Below are positions 30,001-39,000 of a stretch of 64,000 nucleotides of DNA, piece after piece. The position numbers are program-made. This DNA is from Nitrospirota bacterium. GTDB taxonomy: Bacteria; Nitrospirota; Thermodesulfovibrionia; Thermodesulfovibrionales; JdFR-86. Every line of letters starts with the position of its first letter. Position 1 is the stretch's first letter. The DNA lies in assembly GCA_963721805.1 (NCBI GenBank), contig CAVRJY010000002.1, forward strand, positions 320,001-384,000. Reading direction: 5' to 3'.

Positions 30001-33000
30001 CTGGATCGGGCTTCTGGAGCCGGAGTCGCGCGAAGTCAGGCAGGCGGCGAGTTACGGCAGGACGGATTATCTCGACGGCATCAGGATCGTAGCAGCGGAC
30101 GTCCCTGAGGGCCGGGGGCCGACCGGCCGCGCCGTCGCCGAGGCCCGGGAGTTCATCTGCAGCGATATCATGGAAGACCCGCTTATGCTGCCCTGGCGGC
30201 AGCGCGCCATTTCCCACGGGCTCCGTTCCTCGGCGTCCTTCCCCCTGCGCATCGGTTCCGAGGCGGTCGGCGCACTGACCATATATTCCGCGATGCCATG
30301 CTTCTTCAGCGACGAGGAGATGGCGCTCCTTTTCTCGCTGGCCGAGGACATCTCCCTGGCGATAGCGTTCATCGAGACCGAGCGCAAGCGCAAGGAGGCG
30401 GAAGACGGCCTCAGGCAGCTAAACGAAGAACTTGAGCGGCGGGTGCTGCAAAGGACGGTCGAGCTTGAGTCCGTCAACAGGGAGCTCGACGCCTTCAGCC
30501 AGTCCGTCGCGCATGACTTGCGCGCACCCCTCCGTTTCATCGACGGCTTCTCGAATATATTGCTGGAAGATCACTCCACGGCCCTGAACGAGGATGGCAG
30601 GAAGCTGCTCTCGTCGATTCGCGGCCATGCCGGCAGGATGGATGAACTCATAAGCGCGCTGCTGTCGCTTGCGCGAGCGGGCCGCCAGGCAATCTCCCTT
30701 TCCCCTCTTGATATGAAATGGCTGGCGGAGTGCGCCTTCGATGAACTGAAGGCTGTTGATCCCTCGAGGGAGGTCCGGTTTATCGCCAAGGCCGTTCCGT
30801 CCGTCAAGGGCGACCTGGTCCTGATCCGGCAGGTTCTTTTCAACCTCATGGGCAATGCCTGGAAGTTCACCTCCAAGCTAAAGGACGCCGTCATAGAATT
30901 CGGGGCCCTTCAGAAGGGCGGCCTGCCCGCCTATTACGTCAGGGACAACGGGGCGGGATTCGACCCCGCGCACGCCGACAGGCTGTTTAAGCCCTTCCAG
31001 CGGTGTCACTCTGACATTGAGTTTGAGGGCACCGGCATAGGCCTGGCTATCGTCGAGCGGATCGTATTGCGTCACGGCGGCAGGGTATGGGCCGAGGGCG
31101 AGACGGGCAGAGGGGCGACCTTCTTTTTCTCATTAGGCTGATAAATACCGGATACCGCGGAATCGGCCGCGTTTGACCGTGGCTTGCCCGCAGGCCGCCT
31201 TACCGCCCCCCGATCCAGCTGTTTTCCCTCTGATTTCGGCTTTTCCTGGTAACCCTAAATTTAGCTATTATATTTTTTTATCTTATGATTTATAATAAGG
31301 AGGTTTTGCCACGGCACGGGGAGGCATCTGAGAGACGGCCCCATGCGGCATTGTATACTAAAATATACGATCTCCATTAAGGAGGAACGATGGGCGGCAA
31401 GGTGCTTGTGGTGGACGACGACGCGGTCGTCTTAAGGAGCTGCGAGAAGATCTTAAAGACCGAGGGCTACGAGGTCCGCCTGACCTCCTCGCCCAAAGAG
31501 GGTCTTGCGATACTGGGCGCTGAGTCCTTCGACGCCCTGATAACCGACATCAAGATGCCCGAGATGGACGGCATAGAGCTGATCCGCAAGGTGCGCTCCC
31601 AGCCGGGCTCCTCGGACGTGGGCATCATCCTCATCACCGGCTTCCCGTCACAGGAAAACATCCGCGAGGCCCTGAAGCTCGGCATCGTGGACTACCTGCC
31701 CAAGCCGTTCTCCCCAGCCCTCCTGCTTGAGGTCGCGGCGCGCGCCATCAAGGGCGCGTCCGCCCAGCCCGAGGAGCCGCAGGAGCAGGACAAGGCCGAG
31801 GCCATGATGGGCGAGATCTCAAAGATCATCCAGCAGTACAAGGGCAGGCCCGGAAGCCTCCTGCCGGTGCTCCATGCGGTCAAGACCCTCGTAGGTGACC
31901 TCACTCCGGTGGTCCAGCGCTACATAGCGCGCGGGATGAACCTGCCGGTGAGCGAGGTCTACGGCGTCGTGTCTTTCTACCCCTCGTTCTCGGGCAAGCG
32001 CAGCGCGCGAGATAGCAAGCCCAAGGGCAAAAACCACGTCAAGGTCTGCATCGGCCCCGCGTGCGTGGTCAAGCGCTCCGAGGAGATAGTAGAGCGGATC
32101 AAGGACATCCTCGGCATAGACCTGGGCGAGATCACGCCGGATAAGTCCTTCTCTCTGGAGGCGGTCAAGTGCCTCGGGATGTGCGGCCTGGCCCCGGTGG
32201 TCGTAGTCGGCAAGGAGACCCACGGCGGCATAACCGCGGCGGACGCCGAGGCCGTGATCGGGCAGTACCGCTGATATGCGATCCCTAACATTTAATATGG
32301 AGGTCCTTTGATGGCTGAAGGCTACCGTGCGGAACTGATGGTCTGCGGGGGTACGGGCTGTATCTCCGGCGGAGGTCACAAGATAAAGGAAGCCTTTGAC
32401 GCCGAGTTCGCCAAGCGCGGCCTCTCCTCTGACTACCGCGTAGTGCTCTCCGGATGCATCGGCATATGCGGAGACGGCCCGGTCGTGCTCGTCCAGCCCG
32501 AGGGCGTGCTCTATGAGAACGTAAAGCCCGAGGACGCCACTTTGATAGTCGAGGAGCACTTCGTGGGCGGCAAGCCTGTGGAGAAGCTCATGTTCAAGGA
32601 CCCCTCAAAGGCCGGGGCCAAGATACCGCTTATAAAGGATATACCGTACTTCAACCTCCAGACGCCGATGACGCTCCGCAACAGGGGCCATATCGACCCC
32701 GAGAGCATAGACGACTACATCGCCAGAGACGGCTACAAGGCCGTAAAGCGCGCCCTGACAGAGATGGCCCCCCAGGAGATCATCAAGATGATGAAGAACT
32801 CCGGGATGCGCGGCCGCGGCGGCATAGGATATCCCACCGGGCTTAAGTGGGAGATCTGCGGCATGGTCAAGGCCGACCAGAAATATATTATCTGCAACGG
32901 CGACGAGGGCGACCCAGGCGCATACATGGACCGCGGCATCATGGAGAGCGACCCCCACGCGATCATCGAGGGCATGATAATCGGCGGGCGCGCCGTAGGG

Positions 33001-36000: not shown

Positions 36001-39000
36001 CGAGGCCAGCCCGATGCGCGCGATGTACGTCATGGGCGAAAACCCTGTGATCACGTTTCCCGAGTCGAAGACCGTCGAGCAGACGCTTAAGGCCATGGAG
36101 TTTCTGGTCGTGCAGGACATCATGCTCACCGACACGGCGAAGCTCGCCCACGTCGTCCTGCCGGCCTCGAGCTGGGCCGAGAAGGACGGCACGTTTGTAG
36201 GCATGACCGGCATACCGCAGAAGATAGTACCGTGCGTCCCACCGACCGGGGAGTCGCTCCCGGACTGGCGGATATTCCACGACATCGCCTCGGCGATGGG
36301 ACGGGACATCGACGCCGGGGATTTCAAGGAGCTCACGGCCGAGGTATGCAAGGCAGTGCCGCTTAATTATGACCTCACCTCCTCGAGCCCGGCCTTCGTG
36401 CCCGTGGCCCAGTCCGGCGGCGTCGAGCCCTCGGCCGACTATCCGTTTACGATGGTAACCGGCATCCTGATGCAGCACTCCGGGAGCCTGACGACGCTGT
36501 CTAAGGGGCTCGAAAGCGTAGTGTCCGACGCTTACCTTCAGATCAACGCAGAGGACGCCGCTGCCTCCGGAATAGCTGATGAGAAATTCGTGCGCGTCTC
36601 ATCCCCCAAGGGCGAGATATTCCTCAAGGCCCGCGTCACCGACGAGGTCCCGGCCGGGATGCTCTTCGTGCCGGCCCACTTCCCCCATGCGAGGGTCAAT
36701 ACGCTGCGCACGCTGCCGCCCGCGGACGGCGGCCACAGCCTGGTCGCCGTGAAGGTGGAGCCTGCGTAAGGGTTCCCAGCGGCTTGCTGGCCGTGTCCAG
36801 GGTACGGCGGCCAGTCGCGTCCGGCATGCGGTGTCTCCGGGGAGGTTAGCTCAGCTGTAATATGAAACCGCGCATCTCGATCCACGCCAAGCTCTTCGCG
36901 GTCACGATCGTGGTGCTTAGCGTCGTGCTCGCGGGCGGATTTTATTTCATCCTCAGGTTCCAGTCCGAGCGCGTCCGCGACACGCTCGCGCGCAACACCG
37001 CATCGCTCTCGGAGGTCCTGGCCAGCACGGCAGGAAACGTGGTCGCTAAGATGGCCGACGCCCGCCGGGTGTTAGACGCGGTGTCCGCGGGCCTTATCAA
37101 TTCCGGCGATCTCCTGGGCGTCGAGGTCCACTCGCCCATAATCGGAATCATCAGCAACGCCACGAGTCCGGGGTTTGGGTTCGCGGCCCCCGAGCTTCTG
37201 GCCGCCGGGATATCCAGCGCTTACAGGGACGGACGCATAGCCTCGATGCGTGACGGCGGCGTCTATTACCGCTTCGTGCCTATCAGCGGTGACGGCGCAC
37301 CGGAGGGGGTCGCGGTATTCGCATCGGCCTCGGTCATCCGCGACGGCGCGCTTACCGCGATGGTGGGCGAAGGGCTTGGCCACATATACTCCGCCGAGGT
37401 CCACGGCGGCCTGCTCTACCTCCAGAGGCTCGCAAGCGAGATCGGGACTCTCGAGGGCGTGCGCGGCGTGCTGATATGCGATTCCGGCGGAAACGTGCTT
37501 GCCGCCTCAAAGGGCATGCGCCGTGATGTCGTGGAGTTCGACCCCATGCCCTACATCAGGGAGGCCTTATCCAATCGCCGCGCGATCGCGGTGGAAGCCC
37601 CTGCGGGGGACTTGATCTTCAGGCCGATCCCGGCCGCGGCCGGCCCCGGCATCGACGGCGTGATCGGGCTTCAGTCTGACCTGAGCGCCGCAAGGCGCGA
37701 CACCGCGTATCTGCGCTATGACATGCTGGCCGCCTGGGCCGTGACCCTCGCGGCGCTCTCAGCGATCATAGGGCTGATGGTGCGCAAGCTCATACTTCAG
37801 CCTGTCAAGGGGCTCGTGAAGCTGACTGAAGCGGTGGCCTCGGGCGACCTCAGAGGCCGGGCGGCGCTCAACACCGGGGACGAGTTCGAGGTTCTCGGGG
37901 ACTCGTTTAACCGCATGCTGGGCGACATCGAACGCTCACATGACGAACTGACCGCGTCGCGCGATTTCCTGGAGCGCATCCTAGCGCATATGAACGAGGC
38001 CGTCCTGGTCTTCACTTCGGGGGGGATCGTCTGGGCCTCGAACGCATCGGCGCAATCCATAAGCGGCTACGGCAAGGAAGAGCTCGATTCTCTGGGGTTC
38101 AGGGAGATTTTCAGCGGATTTCCGGGGGATGGCGGCAAGGACATCGCGGAGCTCTGCGACGGCAGGGAGATGACGCTTAAGCGCAGAGACGGCGTATTAG
38201 TGCCGGTTGCGGTCTCCTGCGCATCGATGGAAGACGATGGGCAGGTCTTCGTCTTGCAGGACATAAGCGGGCGCAAAAAGGCCGAGGAGGCGCTAAGGGC
38301 CTCGGAGGAGAAGTTTTCGAAGGCCTTCCTGGCCTCACCGGACCTGATCCTGATAAGCAGGCTCAGCGACGGGAGGATCATCGACTGCAACGAGTCGGTC
38401 CTGAACTCATTGGGCTACGAAAAAGGCGAGGTCTTGGGCAGGACGACCGAGGAAGCCGGGTTCTGGAAGGGCCAGAGCGCATCGCGCGACGAGTTCGTGG
38501 GCCGCATAGTGCACGAGGGCCGGGCAAGGGAATTCGAGATGCTCTTTGACGTCCGCGGGGAGCCCAGGACGCTGCTGGTCTCATCGGAGCCGATCTCGGT
38601 AGGCGGCGAGGACTGCCTCCTGAGCGTCGCACACGACGTCACAGAGCGCAAACGCGCGGAGGCGCGCCTCAGGGCCGCTATCTCCGAGAAGGAGGTCCTG
38701 CTCCGCGAGGTCCACCACCGCGTCAAGAACAACCTGCAGGTCATCCAGAGCATGCTCTCGATGCAGGCGATGCACATCAAGGACACAGCAACGGAGCGCG
38801 CGTTCCGCGAGAGCCAGGGCAGGGTGCGCTCGATGGCCCTGATACACGAGCGGTTCTACCGCTCCGGGGACCTCTCGCGTATAGACTTCGGCGAGTACAC
38901 AACATCGCTGCTGCGCCAGCTGTTTTCGATCTACGGGGCTGACCCCGGCCGGATCGCGACGCGGGTCGAGGCCGGGGGCGTCAGCCTCCCGATTGACTAC

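Follow-up and report, generated by a model that had tools for sequence, protein, structure and literature searches.

Nuo-Bfu is a predicted family, type 3 of BfuABC with BfuB clades 38/39, and the Nitrospirae have been named for clade 39 (Schut et al. 2022, PMC9304861). In this family, BfuC-BfuB-BfuA, encoded between nuoD and nuoH in the nuo operon, replaces NuoEFG, and BfuA has no catalytic site; the B2 site of BfuB proteins is formed by three Cys and a conserved His, with Cys or Thr at a fifth position (PMC9304861). The words 'receiver' and 'kinase' are absent from the main text of that paper, and 'receiver' and 'response regulator' from the text of its supplement, figures aside. Among solved proteins, NiFe-HydABCSL of Acetomicrobium mobile (PDB 7T2R; Feng et al. 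2022, PMC8880783) provides the C and B subunits closest to those analysed here, and both it and FeFe-HydABC have the same cluster set. Feng et al. present the C-terminal domain of HydC as a moving gate and, in HydB, place the NAD(H) site (F282, E287, F307) beside the FMN ligands K177, N194, and E197. Residues marking bifurcation were listed by Losey 2020 as A/E232 and M234, F367, and GGPSG (PMC7311640). Enzymes of the BfuABC family are expected to depend on NAD(H) and ferredoxin together for activity. With respect to complex I, headless clusters occur in Thermodesulfovibrio (PMC5165239), and another study describes the 11-subunit complex I, a headless body, as a docking platform (PMC11238625).

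Here, a three-gene module was analysed in a window of 64,000 nucleotides from a Nitrospirota bacterium. It resembles Nuo-Bfu in its subunits and in that unfused orthologues from sister family f25 and the copy in genome G209 lie inside nuo operons. Unlike Nuo-Bfu, it has a receiver domain on BfuC, usually lies outside the nuo operon beside canonical nuoEFG, and is linked to a heme-motif kinase, a sigma-54 activator, and a receiver-GcvH fusion (REC-GcvH). In contrast to NiFe-HydABCSL and FeFe-HydABC, the window cluster has no hydrogenase subunits or H-cluster domain, and the solved proteins have no receiver. Canonical NuoEFG has homologous folds and probably shares the docking site on NuoBCDI, whereas its 420-aa NuoF lacks B2/B3/B4/B5. 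As described for the 11-subunit complex I, the source genome appears to combine a headless body with a separately encoded donor module; the difference is that here the donor has a regulatory domain and is identified from the arrangement of genes in relatives.

The fused BfuC and its distribution

The REC-BfuC protein is composed of a receiver domain, a short flexible linker, a helical domain, and a thioredoxin-like 2Fe-2S domain with cluster C1 (Table 1). The survey's finding of both Pfam families in one ORF was reproduced, and both are also present in 120/120 best database matches. The receiver has an acidic pocket (D9/D10), a phospho-acceptor (D53, codon 31546-31548), a switch pair (T83/Y102), and K105, the full set of features of a phosphorylatable response regulator (acidic pocket, phospho-Asp, Thr/Tyr switch, Lys), and its helix-1 signature is S17-C18. 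The reported invariance of the receiver residues and the four 2Fe-2S ligands (C220, C225, C261, and C265) holds in all 120 matches, where D9, D10, D53, T83, D101, Y102, K105, and P86 are likewise unchanged and S87-Q88-E89 of the output face is nearly invariant. Receiver residues have been lost in G147 and G252 and partly in G351.

Table 1. Features at and around the REC-BfuC gene (window positions)
Feature	Position	Strand	Basis or remark
GAF-HisKA-HATPase histidine kinase, directly upstream of fusion gene	29753..31141	+	Pfam domains
Shine-Dalgarno AGGAGG of REC-BfuC gene	31380..31385	+	sequence
REC-BfuC (REC-HydC/NuoE-like)	31390..32274	+	single ORF, 294 aa
Receiver domain, aa 5-115	31402..31734	+	PF00072, 98.8 bits (cut-off 30.2)
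NuoE/HydC-type region, aa 143-293	31816..32268	+	PF01257, 132.2 bits (cut-off 24.8)
BfuB (HydB-type flavoprotein), 636 aa from ATG	32311..34221	+	Pfam domains, cysteine motifs, alignment
BfuA (NuoG/FdhF-fold), 833 aa	34268..36769	+	Pfam domains, motif alignment
HAMP-PAS-HisKA_2 kinase, downstream of bfuA	36862..39300	+	Pfam domains
REC-PAS-PAS-GGDEF protein, downstream	39342..41036	+	Pfam domains

An AlphaFold2 model (mean pLDDT 83.8) has pLDDT values below 50 at residues 126-131 and 203-208, and the position of the receiver relative to the rest of the protein is not fixed in it (pTM 0.53). A 7-residue insertion at approximately 201-208 is private to the source lineage in the alignment. In a fold search, the two halves were matched separately, with no solved protein containing both among the 50 ranks listed; among solved proteins, the C-terminal half is closest to HydC of NiFe-HydABCSL (7t2r_C, E 1.2e-31).

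The full-length fusion was found in 24/30 relatives and in 96/131 genomes of the class, source included (36/61 other members of the order and 59/69 genomes of other orders). An order-wide trait had been proposed; the fusion is indeed old and conserved, but its range is class-wide, and yet whole families lack it (f10, 0/10; f12, 0/4). A whole-protein scan of named genomes returned receiver-domain matches only and no full-length fusion, and no paper describing a receiver-NuoE/BfuC fusion was found in literature searches by term and by title or opening of the abstract, with subscription journals outside their coverage.

The BfuB and BfuA subunits

BfuB (residues numbered from TTG 32308, the start in the ORF list, giving 637 aa; ATG at 32311) consists of an N-terminal 2Fe-2S domain (B5), an FMN site, 4Fe-4S cluster B1, B2, and two C-terminal 4Fe-4S clusters (B3/B4). 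The putative B2 ligands C441/H528/C534/C539 are C/H/C/C in 39/39 aligned copies; the fifth position is Thr in 34/39 and Val in the window copy. Based on Pfam domains and cysteine motifs, the cluster set of the BfuABC family is complete (FMN domain, B1, B5, and B3/B4 in BfuB; C1 in BfuC; A1/A2 in BfuA), and the best solved relatives of BfuB are bifurcating B subunits (7t2r_B, E 1.7e-216, versus 1.6e-102 for E. coli NuoF). BfuA has five FeS motifs and molybdopterin-fold domains without metal-ligating Cys/Sec. It reads NIDSLARFG at the site where formate dehydrogenases have C-A-R-x-C/U-H, and thus lacks the Cys/Sec ligand followed by His that defines the catalytic A subunit of Fdh-Bfu; Cys/Sec-His at the molybdenum ligand position is absent from every cluster BfuA aligned. 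Judged from these motifs, BfuA serves as a wire for electrons and houses no enzyme site.

The NuoF and NuoG labels given earlier are the best NCBIfam matches, but the scores fall short of the curated cut-offs (TIGR01959, 456.9 versus 558.65; TIGR01973, 446.6 versus 470.05; TIGR01958, 92 versus 142.4). The 637-aa BfuB also departs from canonical NuoF, which is about 420 aa long, has no ferredoxin domains, and carries T/K and Y marks. On sequence grounds, the three genes are therefore an electron-bifurcating BfuCBA (HydCBA-type) module with an A subunit lacking the catalytic site, rather than ordinary NuoEFG. The 'respiratory or bifurcating' module of the survey's finding can be refined to the bifurcating Bfu type, tied to complex I by the gene order of relatives.

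Across the class, the Losey marks are widely kept (F in 37/39 BfuB copies, GGPSG in 35/39), and in the window copy A205 and M207 fit, but S285 and GGPAG deviate. Unlike A. mobile HydB, this copy has S285, Y290, and L310 in place of the NAD contacts F282, E287, and F307. Three published bifurcation/NAD-site marks are missing; the FMN ligands K180, N197, and E200 are retained. The same changes are present in P0306 and P0307, while most relatives keep the NAD-contact residues (E in 36/39). Judged from the alignment, the NAD site is remodelled in the source lineage with FMN and FeS ligands kept. A decaying pseudogene was ruled out because 54/63 departures from otherwise 95%-conserved columns are common to two sequences 86-87% identical, and because among these sequences the flavin domain (90-92%) is better kept than the N-terminal one (77-78%). 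When metagenomes were scanned with the window BfuB, no match was closer than 64%.

Links to complex I and a candidate kinase

The nuo operon of the source genome (C2:407283-415749) has the order A-B-C-D-H-I-J-K-L-M without E, F, and G, as had been reported, and the module is detached from it; nuoN lies at C1:1253847-1255229, and thus all 11 other Nuo subunits are encoded. Most other genomes also have the module away from nuo genes, and no more than 30 kb separate the fusion from nuoD in 25/96 fusion genomes, many of whose assemblies are fragmented. Unfused orthologues sit between nuoD and nuoH in 8/8 loci of f25 and form the sister group of the fused proteins in the BfuC tree (support 95, with 88 for the fused clade). 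In G209, the fused form itself occupies the nuoEFG slot, with the order nuoABCD-kinase-REC-REC-bfuC-hydD-bfuB-bfuA-cassette-nuoHIJKLMN on one strand, and the BfuA of this genome shares a clade with the window BfuA (support 100). The BfuC, BfuA, and receiver trees all come from quick IQ-TREE runs, and their support values are SH-aLRT only. Because of these f25 loci and the G209 copy, the module is predicted to be a Nuo-Bfu head of complex I. A HydD-like 2Fe-2S gene is present in 16/20 relative loci, as in HydABC systems.

Canonical 420-aa nuoF is also encoded in 82/96 fusion genomes, and therefore the Bfu module is usually a second head. The idea of a detached module replacing the missing nuoEFG suits the source genome and 13 other fusion genomes without a canonical nuoF match, but it is not general. 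In family f10, nuoD is present in 10/10 genomes and the fusion in 0/10; since headless complex I occurs there without the REC-BfuC module, the complex I body has other inputs.

A HAMP kinase whose periplasmic part carries CxxCH and Cx4CH motifs adjoins the fusion cluster in relatives and is an orphan at C4:300163 in the source genome. Its sensor domain is present in 82/96 fusion genomes versus 7/35 without the fusion, counts taken across kin, so that genomes are not independent. Helix-1 is S-C/S-A in 47/53 REC-BfuC-labelled rows and S-C/A-C in 28/30 REC-GcvH-labelled rows, and S-C occurs in 1/88 receiver domains of the source genome. A kinase core orthologue (54-67% identity) was found in 6/6 tested genomes with an intact receiver and in none of the three tested with a decayed receiver (best 36-43%). 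Based on linkage, shared signature, and receiver decay where the kinase is missing, this heme-motif kinase of a conserved cassette is the likely cognate kinase of REC-BfuC. The three decayed receivers may represent one or two events, as G147 and G252 belong to the same genus and group with G351. The shared signature could reflect plain common descent; the receiver tree resolved no single clade for the four receiver types.

The cassette repeatedly joins the same receiver to unrelated passengers, namely a GcvH-like domain without the lipoyl lysine and, in L117, an RsbT-like kinase with a receiver almost identical to that of BfuC. In other phyla, the same accessory cassette accompanies Bfu clusters of the hydrogenase and Fdh types. 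A predicted sigma-54 site lies 27-68 nt 5' of REC-gcvH in 15/28 loci, a count reached by at most 3% of shuffles; such promoters and the activator would add transcriptional control. No sigma-54 site was seen upstream of the window fusion gene, and scans of 30900-37200 for sigma-70 promoters and terminators gave no more than chance would. The earlier description did not include the candidate kinase, the accessory kinase/phosphatase cassette, the sigma-54 branch, or the loss of NAD contacts in the source copy.

Two neighbours in the window were considered separately. The upstream GAF kinase is unlikely as cognate, as it has no counterpart in 20 relative loci and its phospho-transfer helix differs from those of the cassette kinases. 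The downstream HAMP-PAS-HisKA_2 kinase and REC-PAS-PAS-GGDEF protein are probably a pair of their own; the receiver of the latter has no S-C signature and groups elsewhere in the receiver tree.

Proposed mechanism and rival explanations

The known control of respiration by two-component systems acts through transcription, and response regulators with enzymatic output include CheB, PleD/WspR, and RssB. REC-BfuC resembles these in its N-terminal receiver, intact switch, and non-DNA-binding partner, and differs from them in having, in place of a signalling enzyme, an iron-sulfur subunit of an energy-conserving complex as its output. We lean, by a modest degree, towards a phospho-regulated Nuo-Bfu head of complex I with the receiver on BfuC, input from the HAMP kinase, and a choice between two heads. 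In this model, the three genes would encode the soluble head through which a bifurcating complex I takes in electrons, with BfuB binding FMN, NAD(H), and ferredoxin, BfuC carrying the mobile C1 cluster as a gate to the low-potential path, and BfuA wiring electrons to NuoI/B/D and menaquinone. The receiver would have been joined to BfuC in the ancestor of the class. The membrane kinase, presumably responding to redox, O2, or NO, would phosphorylate a set of look-alike receivers: the sigma-54 activator responsible for transcription of the operon, a stand-alone receiver, the receiver-GcvH fusion, and D53 of REC-BfuC. Phosphorylation may switch the activity of the head or its docking on the NuoA-D/H-N body, and the cell could therefore choose between the ferredoxin-plus-NADH head and the NADH-only NuoEFG head kept by most of the fusion genomes. 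The sequences themselves show the fusion with its intact switch, the set of Bfu clusters, the lack of a metal ligand, the place of relatives' genes in nuo operons, the linkage to the kinase, and the sigma-54 sites; phosphorylation by this kinase, its signal, docking, and the effect of phosphorylation are inferred. The earlier proposal of two-component control is the best reading of a full phosphorylation switch in an old, conserved fusion, with phosphorylation by the kinase as its predicted step.

A soluble Bfu enzyme regulated by the receiver, whose catalytic partner (formate dehydrogenase, NfnAB, or hydrogenase) comes from separate genes, its complex I link being a relic of gene origin, appears rather unlikely. 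Partners other than complex I are hinted at by fdhD directly 3' of bfuA in six loci (L106, L143, L144, L145, L156, and L158) and by nfnAB inside the cluster in L135 and L160. The selenocysteine formate dehydrogenase 15 kb downstream within the window, the canonical nuoF already present in 82/96 fusion genomes, the cassette beside hydrogenase- and Fdh-type clusters, and the single Fdh beside 16 Nuo in clade 39 (PMC9304861 supplement) point the same way. However, neither the 20 first loci nor the later ones have a constant gene for a catalytic partner, the G209 copy lies in the nuoEFG slot and in the shared clade, and the source genome has no fdhD match and two other BfuBC sets, by fhs and by CO dehydrogenase, which could serve its formate dehydrogenase. 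We consider it improbable that the receiver on a complex I head acts as a tethered sink for phosphate or as a feedback input, accessible depending on enzyme state, that tunes kinase output to the sigma-54 activator instead of catalysis. The unrelated passengers of the same receiver, the low-confidence linker without a fixed domain arrangement, and the unfused sister enzymes that work without a receiver would fit such a role, but the output face (D101, Y102, and P86 with S87-Q88-E89) is conserved in a family-specific manner, and the source genome keeps the receiver without a sigma-54 site, a signature-bearing activator, or any other signature receiver, so that nothing is left to buffer. An ordinary non-bifurcating NuoEFG with a decorative or structural receiver is, in our view, highly improbable: its top NCBIfam names and the absence of GGPSG and the Phe mark from the window BfuB are set against scores below all cut-offs, invariant phosphorylation residues, and clusters B5, B2, B3, and B4, missing from the 420-aa NuoF of the same organisms; moreover, the changes in BfuB delete NAD contacts and bring in no non-bifurcating residues (T/K, Y).

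Under the favoured reading of a phospho-regulated head, the source-genome copy most likely supplies complex I with electrons from just ferredoxin or from another substrate, because the canonical head, cassette, and sigma-54 site are gone, the kinase is an orphan, and the NAD site is remodelled. A broader view, which we hold tentatively and with some doubt, would see one complex I body with two exchangeable heads, a two-component switch with a periplasmic heme sensor at the protein level, and, in the source lineage, a head that has lost its NAD site and become a phospho-gated ferredoxin:menaquinone input. Phosphorylation of the gate subunit would then change the donor pair (NADH versus NADH plus ferredoxin), and hence the energy yield or the direction of proton pumping, and the same kinase would also drive the operon via sigma-54. 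If so, the source lineage would represent an extant stage between complex I driven by NADH and complex I driven by ferredoxin.

If true, the receiver on the gate subunit would represent direct phospho-control of an energy-conserving machine: because, in this class of anaerobic bacteria, the input module itself carries a phosphorylation switch, a sensor kinase may turn the enzyme on or off directly, beyond gene-level control. It would also offer a handle on how HydABC/Bfu enzymes bifurcate, with one Asp locking or freeing the gate, and the Nuo-Bfu family would gain a class-wide example with natural controls in the form of unfused sisters, decayed receivers, and lineages that have lost the NAD site.

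A receiver domain joined to a bifurcating module

The survey's finding that a NuoE-type subunit with an N-terminal receiver domain keeps intact phospho-acceptor residues was confirmed by database comparison. Both PF00072 and PF01257 were present in all 120 best database matches to the fusion protein (REC-BfuC), and D9, D10, D53, T83, Y102, K105 and the four cysteines were invariant among them. The taxonomic names on these matches indicate Thermodesulfovibrionales and related Nitrospirota. In the AlphaFold2 model both parts fold well (mean pLDDT 83.8), the linker is of low confidence, and the domains have no fixed arrangement (pTM 0.53).

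Coordinates of features in the window and elsewhere in the same genome (contigs C1, C2 and C4)
Feature	Position	Strand	Remarks
Sigma-54 site	18170-18184	-	perfect site
Sigma-54 activator gene	about 18322-19719		adjoins the sigma-54 site
Secreted protein	24222-28184	+	1320 aa; SpaA-like and Big_1 repeats
Transglutaminase-like protein	28374-29705	-
REC-BfuC	31390-32274		294 aa; receiver PF00072, aa 5-115; NuoE-type 2Fe-2S region PF01257, aa 143-293 (Pfam)
BfuB	32308/32311-34221		637 aa; same orientation as REC-BfuC
BfuA	34268-36769		833 aa; same orientation as REC-BfuC
Split gene	42771-44154	+	two overlapping frames, 42771-43304 and 43222-44154
Formate dehydrogenase alpha subunit (selenocysteine)	51748-54453	-	N-terminal FeS domains; in-frame TGA 53377-53379 in C-A-R-V-*-H-A-P
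BfuCB pair	C2:59855-62195		beside fhs
Presumed transposase	C2:405942-406976		copy also at C4:309188
Third Bfu cluster	C1:1370958-1378153		adjoins CO dehydrogenase
HAMP kinase	C4:300163-301809		orphan; first heme motif lost

The scores of the three window genes against the NCBIfam models for NuoE, NuoF and NuoG fall below the NCBIfam cut-offs. The three genes are identified as a BfuC-BfuB-BfuA module of the electron-bifurcating HydCBA type, with an A subunit that serves as an electron wire, because the closest solved structures for BfuB and the NuoE part of REC-BfuC are subunits of bifurcating HydABC-type enzymes, the family marks are kept in most BfuB copies of the class, and BfuA has no metal ligand. 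Schut et al. 2022 (PMC9304861) define the Bfu family by the clusters of its B subunit together with a B2 site that has a His ligand. All 39 aligned BfuB copies from the class have complete B2 ligands; 37 have the Phe mark described by Losey et al. (PMC7311640) and 35 have GGPSG. BfuA has the NuoG/formate dehydrogenase fold but, unlike the true selenocysteine formate dehydrogenase of the same window, lacks the metal-ligating Cys or Sec. A tRNA-Sec is present in the genome. No B or C subunit adjoins the formate dehydrogenase alpha gene, whose partner is likely the BfuCB pair beside fhs. In the third Bfu cluster, the A subunit and cooS each lie in two reading frames, reflecting either frameshifts or assembly errors. 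The split gene of the window resembles argH.

The BfuB of this genome is itself unusual. In the solved bifurcating B subunit, K177, N194 and E197 are FMN ligands and F180, F307 and E287 are NAD contacts, as described by Feng et al. 2022 (PMC8880783). Alignment to this subunit showed that the window BfuB retains K180, N197 and E200 at the FMN-ligand positions and carries Y290 and L310 at NAD-contact positions, with S285 in place of F282 and GGPAG in place of GGPSG; at the F180 position the residue is variable across the class. The same changes were found in two database proteins 86-87% identical to the window BfuB. BfuB is 64% and REC-BfuC 57% identical to family relatives, compared with 82% and 76% among those relatives themselves, and both proteins have diverged more than most membrane Nuo subunits in a genome that is somewhat divergent as a whole. 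Judged from these residues, the head (the soluble electron-input module of complex I) of this genome probably takes ferredoxin only or another substrate, and a shift of BfuB to NADP(H) is possible. A different loss was found in three BfuB copies of family f3 (loci L118, L119 and L140), in which a deletion in the FMN/NAD loop removes D-E-G-D-P-G-A-F-M of the flavin site and all FeS ligands are kept; one genome, G228, carries one loop-deleted and one intact copy. BfuB of loci L135 and L142 has C-G-E-S-T-A instead of C-G-E-E-T-A, as do two copies elsewhere in this genome (C2:59855-61693 and C1:1375776-1377779). The change lies at the contact to the NAD ribose and might move preference toward NADP(H). 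In loci L115 (BfuB at 12903), L116 and L137, BfuB has a HydD-type N-terminal domain and there is no separate hydD gene; the two 2Fe-2S domains have become merged.

A probable second head for complex I

The nuo operon of this genome indeed lacks E, F and G, as the survey had stated, and nuoN is encoded separately. The operon also stops at nuoM in three other genomes (G005, G003 and G199). In the own genome, the presumed transposase gene comes straight after nuoM. In a sample of 131 genomes of the class, which are kin and in part incomplete so that co-occurrence counts are not independent, the fusion was found in 96, the canonical 420-aa nuoF in 92 and nuoD in 122; fusion and nuoF occurred together in 82, the fusion only in 14 (own genome included), nuoF only in 10, and neither in 25. 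The proposal that the detached module replaces missing nuoEFG thus applies to the own genome and 13 others, but canonical nuoF is also present in 82 of the 96 fusion genomes. Because of this coexistence, the Bfu module is regarded as mostly a second complex I head. In family f10, nuo operons are headless and the fusion is absent, and the complex I body can therefore also run on other inputs; headless nuo operons were described for Thermodesulfovibrio by Frank et al. (PMC5165239).

The gene order in relatives links the module to complex I. In a phylum sample of 401 genomes, full-length fusion matches were confined to the class. An unfused orthologue was found in 45 of 64 genomes of family f25, which belongs to another class, and sits between nuoD and nuoH in all eight fetched loci. 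In the BfuC tree, these unfused orthologues are sister to the fused clade (support 95 jointly, 88 for the fused clade by itself). Genome G209 carries the fusion in the nuoD-nuoH slot of its nuoA-N operon, which is complete; the kinase lies immediately upstream, and the BfuA of G209 falls in the same clade as that of the window (support 100). Across the class, nuoD lies within 30 kb of the fusion in 25 of 96 fusion genomes. This operon position agrees with Nuo-Bfu, a complex with a bifurcating head in place of NuoEFG, which is already in print as a prediction by Schut et al., who named Nitrospirae for clade 39 (PMC9304861).

Candidate kinase and accessory genes

A HAMP kinase belongs to the genes that accompany the fusion in relatives, and its periplasmic part carries CxxCH and Cx4CH motifs, read as putative c-heme sites. 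Its sensor domain was detected in 82 of the 96 fusion genomes versus 7 of the 35 others. The receiver has decayed in three fusion copies: G147 and G252 both carry Y for D53 and A for K105, and G351 carries K for T83 and Y for K105. These three cases may represent one or two events. In a test of nine fusion genomes and one genome without the fusion, the kinase core was present in all six with an intact receiver (54-67%) and was not found in the three with a decayed one (best match 36-43%). Helix 1 of a receiver is the helix that contacts the kinase. An S-C pair in this helix is common to the cassette receivers, occurring in 39 of 53 REC-BfuC rows (S-A in 8) and 26 of 30 REC-GcvH rows (A-C in 2); the signature was also found in 11/19 and 15/28 rows under two broader labels that also cover unrelated regulators. 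Only one of the 88 receiver domains of the own genome, the fusion itself, has it.

Genes beside the fusion in the first 20 relative loci included a HydD-like 2Fe-2S gene (16), a receiver-GcvH fusion (15), HATPase (12), DRTGG (11), PHP (11), RsbT-like (10) and stand-alone receiver (10) proteins, the HAMP kinase (6) and a sigma-54 activator (3). REC-gcvH is the first gene downstream of a sigma-54 site in relatives. Of 28 loci, 15 have the site 27-68 nt upstream of this gene; two of these are identical in sequence, and several loci without the site have over-long ORF starts. Elsewhere in the window there is a perfect sigma-54 site, within a region (1-24000) of low GC, 0.40-0.52 compared with about 0.61 elsewhere. 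Receiver-GcvH-like fusions, such as L101:4553-5320 and 14 more among loci L101-L120, lack the lipoylated lysine of the GcvH-like domain. REC-GcvH, PHP, RsbT and DRTGG had no match in the own genome.

The DRTGG/RsbT/PHP/HATPase part also accompanies unfused Bfu clusters of other phyla. Many of loci L126-L133 and L179-L245, from several phyla, carry it in the order DRTGG, RsbT-like kinase, DRTGG, PHP and HATPase, with Bfu clusters whose partners are hydrogenase, formate dehydrogenase or Nuo. It may give bifurcating enzymes a second level of control, of the Ser/Thr type, and the search of the open literature returned no description of this association. At L117:7331-8179, a receiver nearly identical to that of BfuC in the same cluster is joined to the RsbT-like kinase, the product of a recent domain duplication; in f25 the same kinase bears CBS domains rather than a receiver.

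Origin and possible role of the fusion

Further receiver-NuoE fusions came from a profile search that covered 1.84 billion representatives, among them proteins from outside the class (P0129, P0142, P0144, P0158 and P0123). Four of the further fusions do not group with the class clade in the tree, where their branches are long and their placement is weak, and a repeated origin of the fusion is therefore possible. The P0158 cluster is named from Deltaproteobacteria and that of P0123 from a Pseudomonadota bin, yet the NuoE part of P0123 nests inside the class clade. NuoG-NuoE fusions were also observed (P0202 and P0257). Both domains of the fusion protein already appear in automated annotations. 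A search of the open literature brought up no account of the fusion, of the candidate kinase or of a complex I with two heads.

The C-terminal domain of HydC is described as the moving gate of bifurcation (PMC8880783). The receiver, tethered to this gate subunit and with a conserved output face, is in a good position to fix or free the gate, or else to govern docking. The HAMP kinase would act twice, on the protein and, via the sigma-54 activator, on transcription. Phosphorylation could switch the head either on or off, in response to whatever signal the putative heme domain senses. The fusion is real and conserved, and the mechanism proposed for REC-BfuCBA is testable. The redox values in Table 1 of PMC9304861 place menaquinone above NADH by about 0.2 V, above the NADH/ferredoxin mean by about 0.3 V and above ferredoxin by about 0.4 V, and the choice of head would therefore set the possible amount and direction of pumping.
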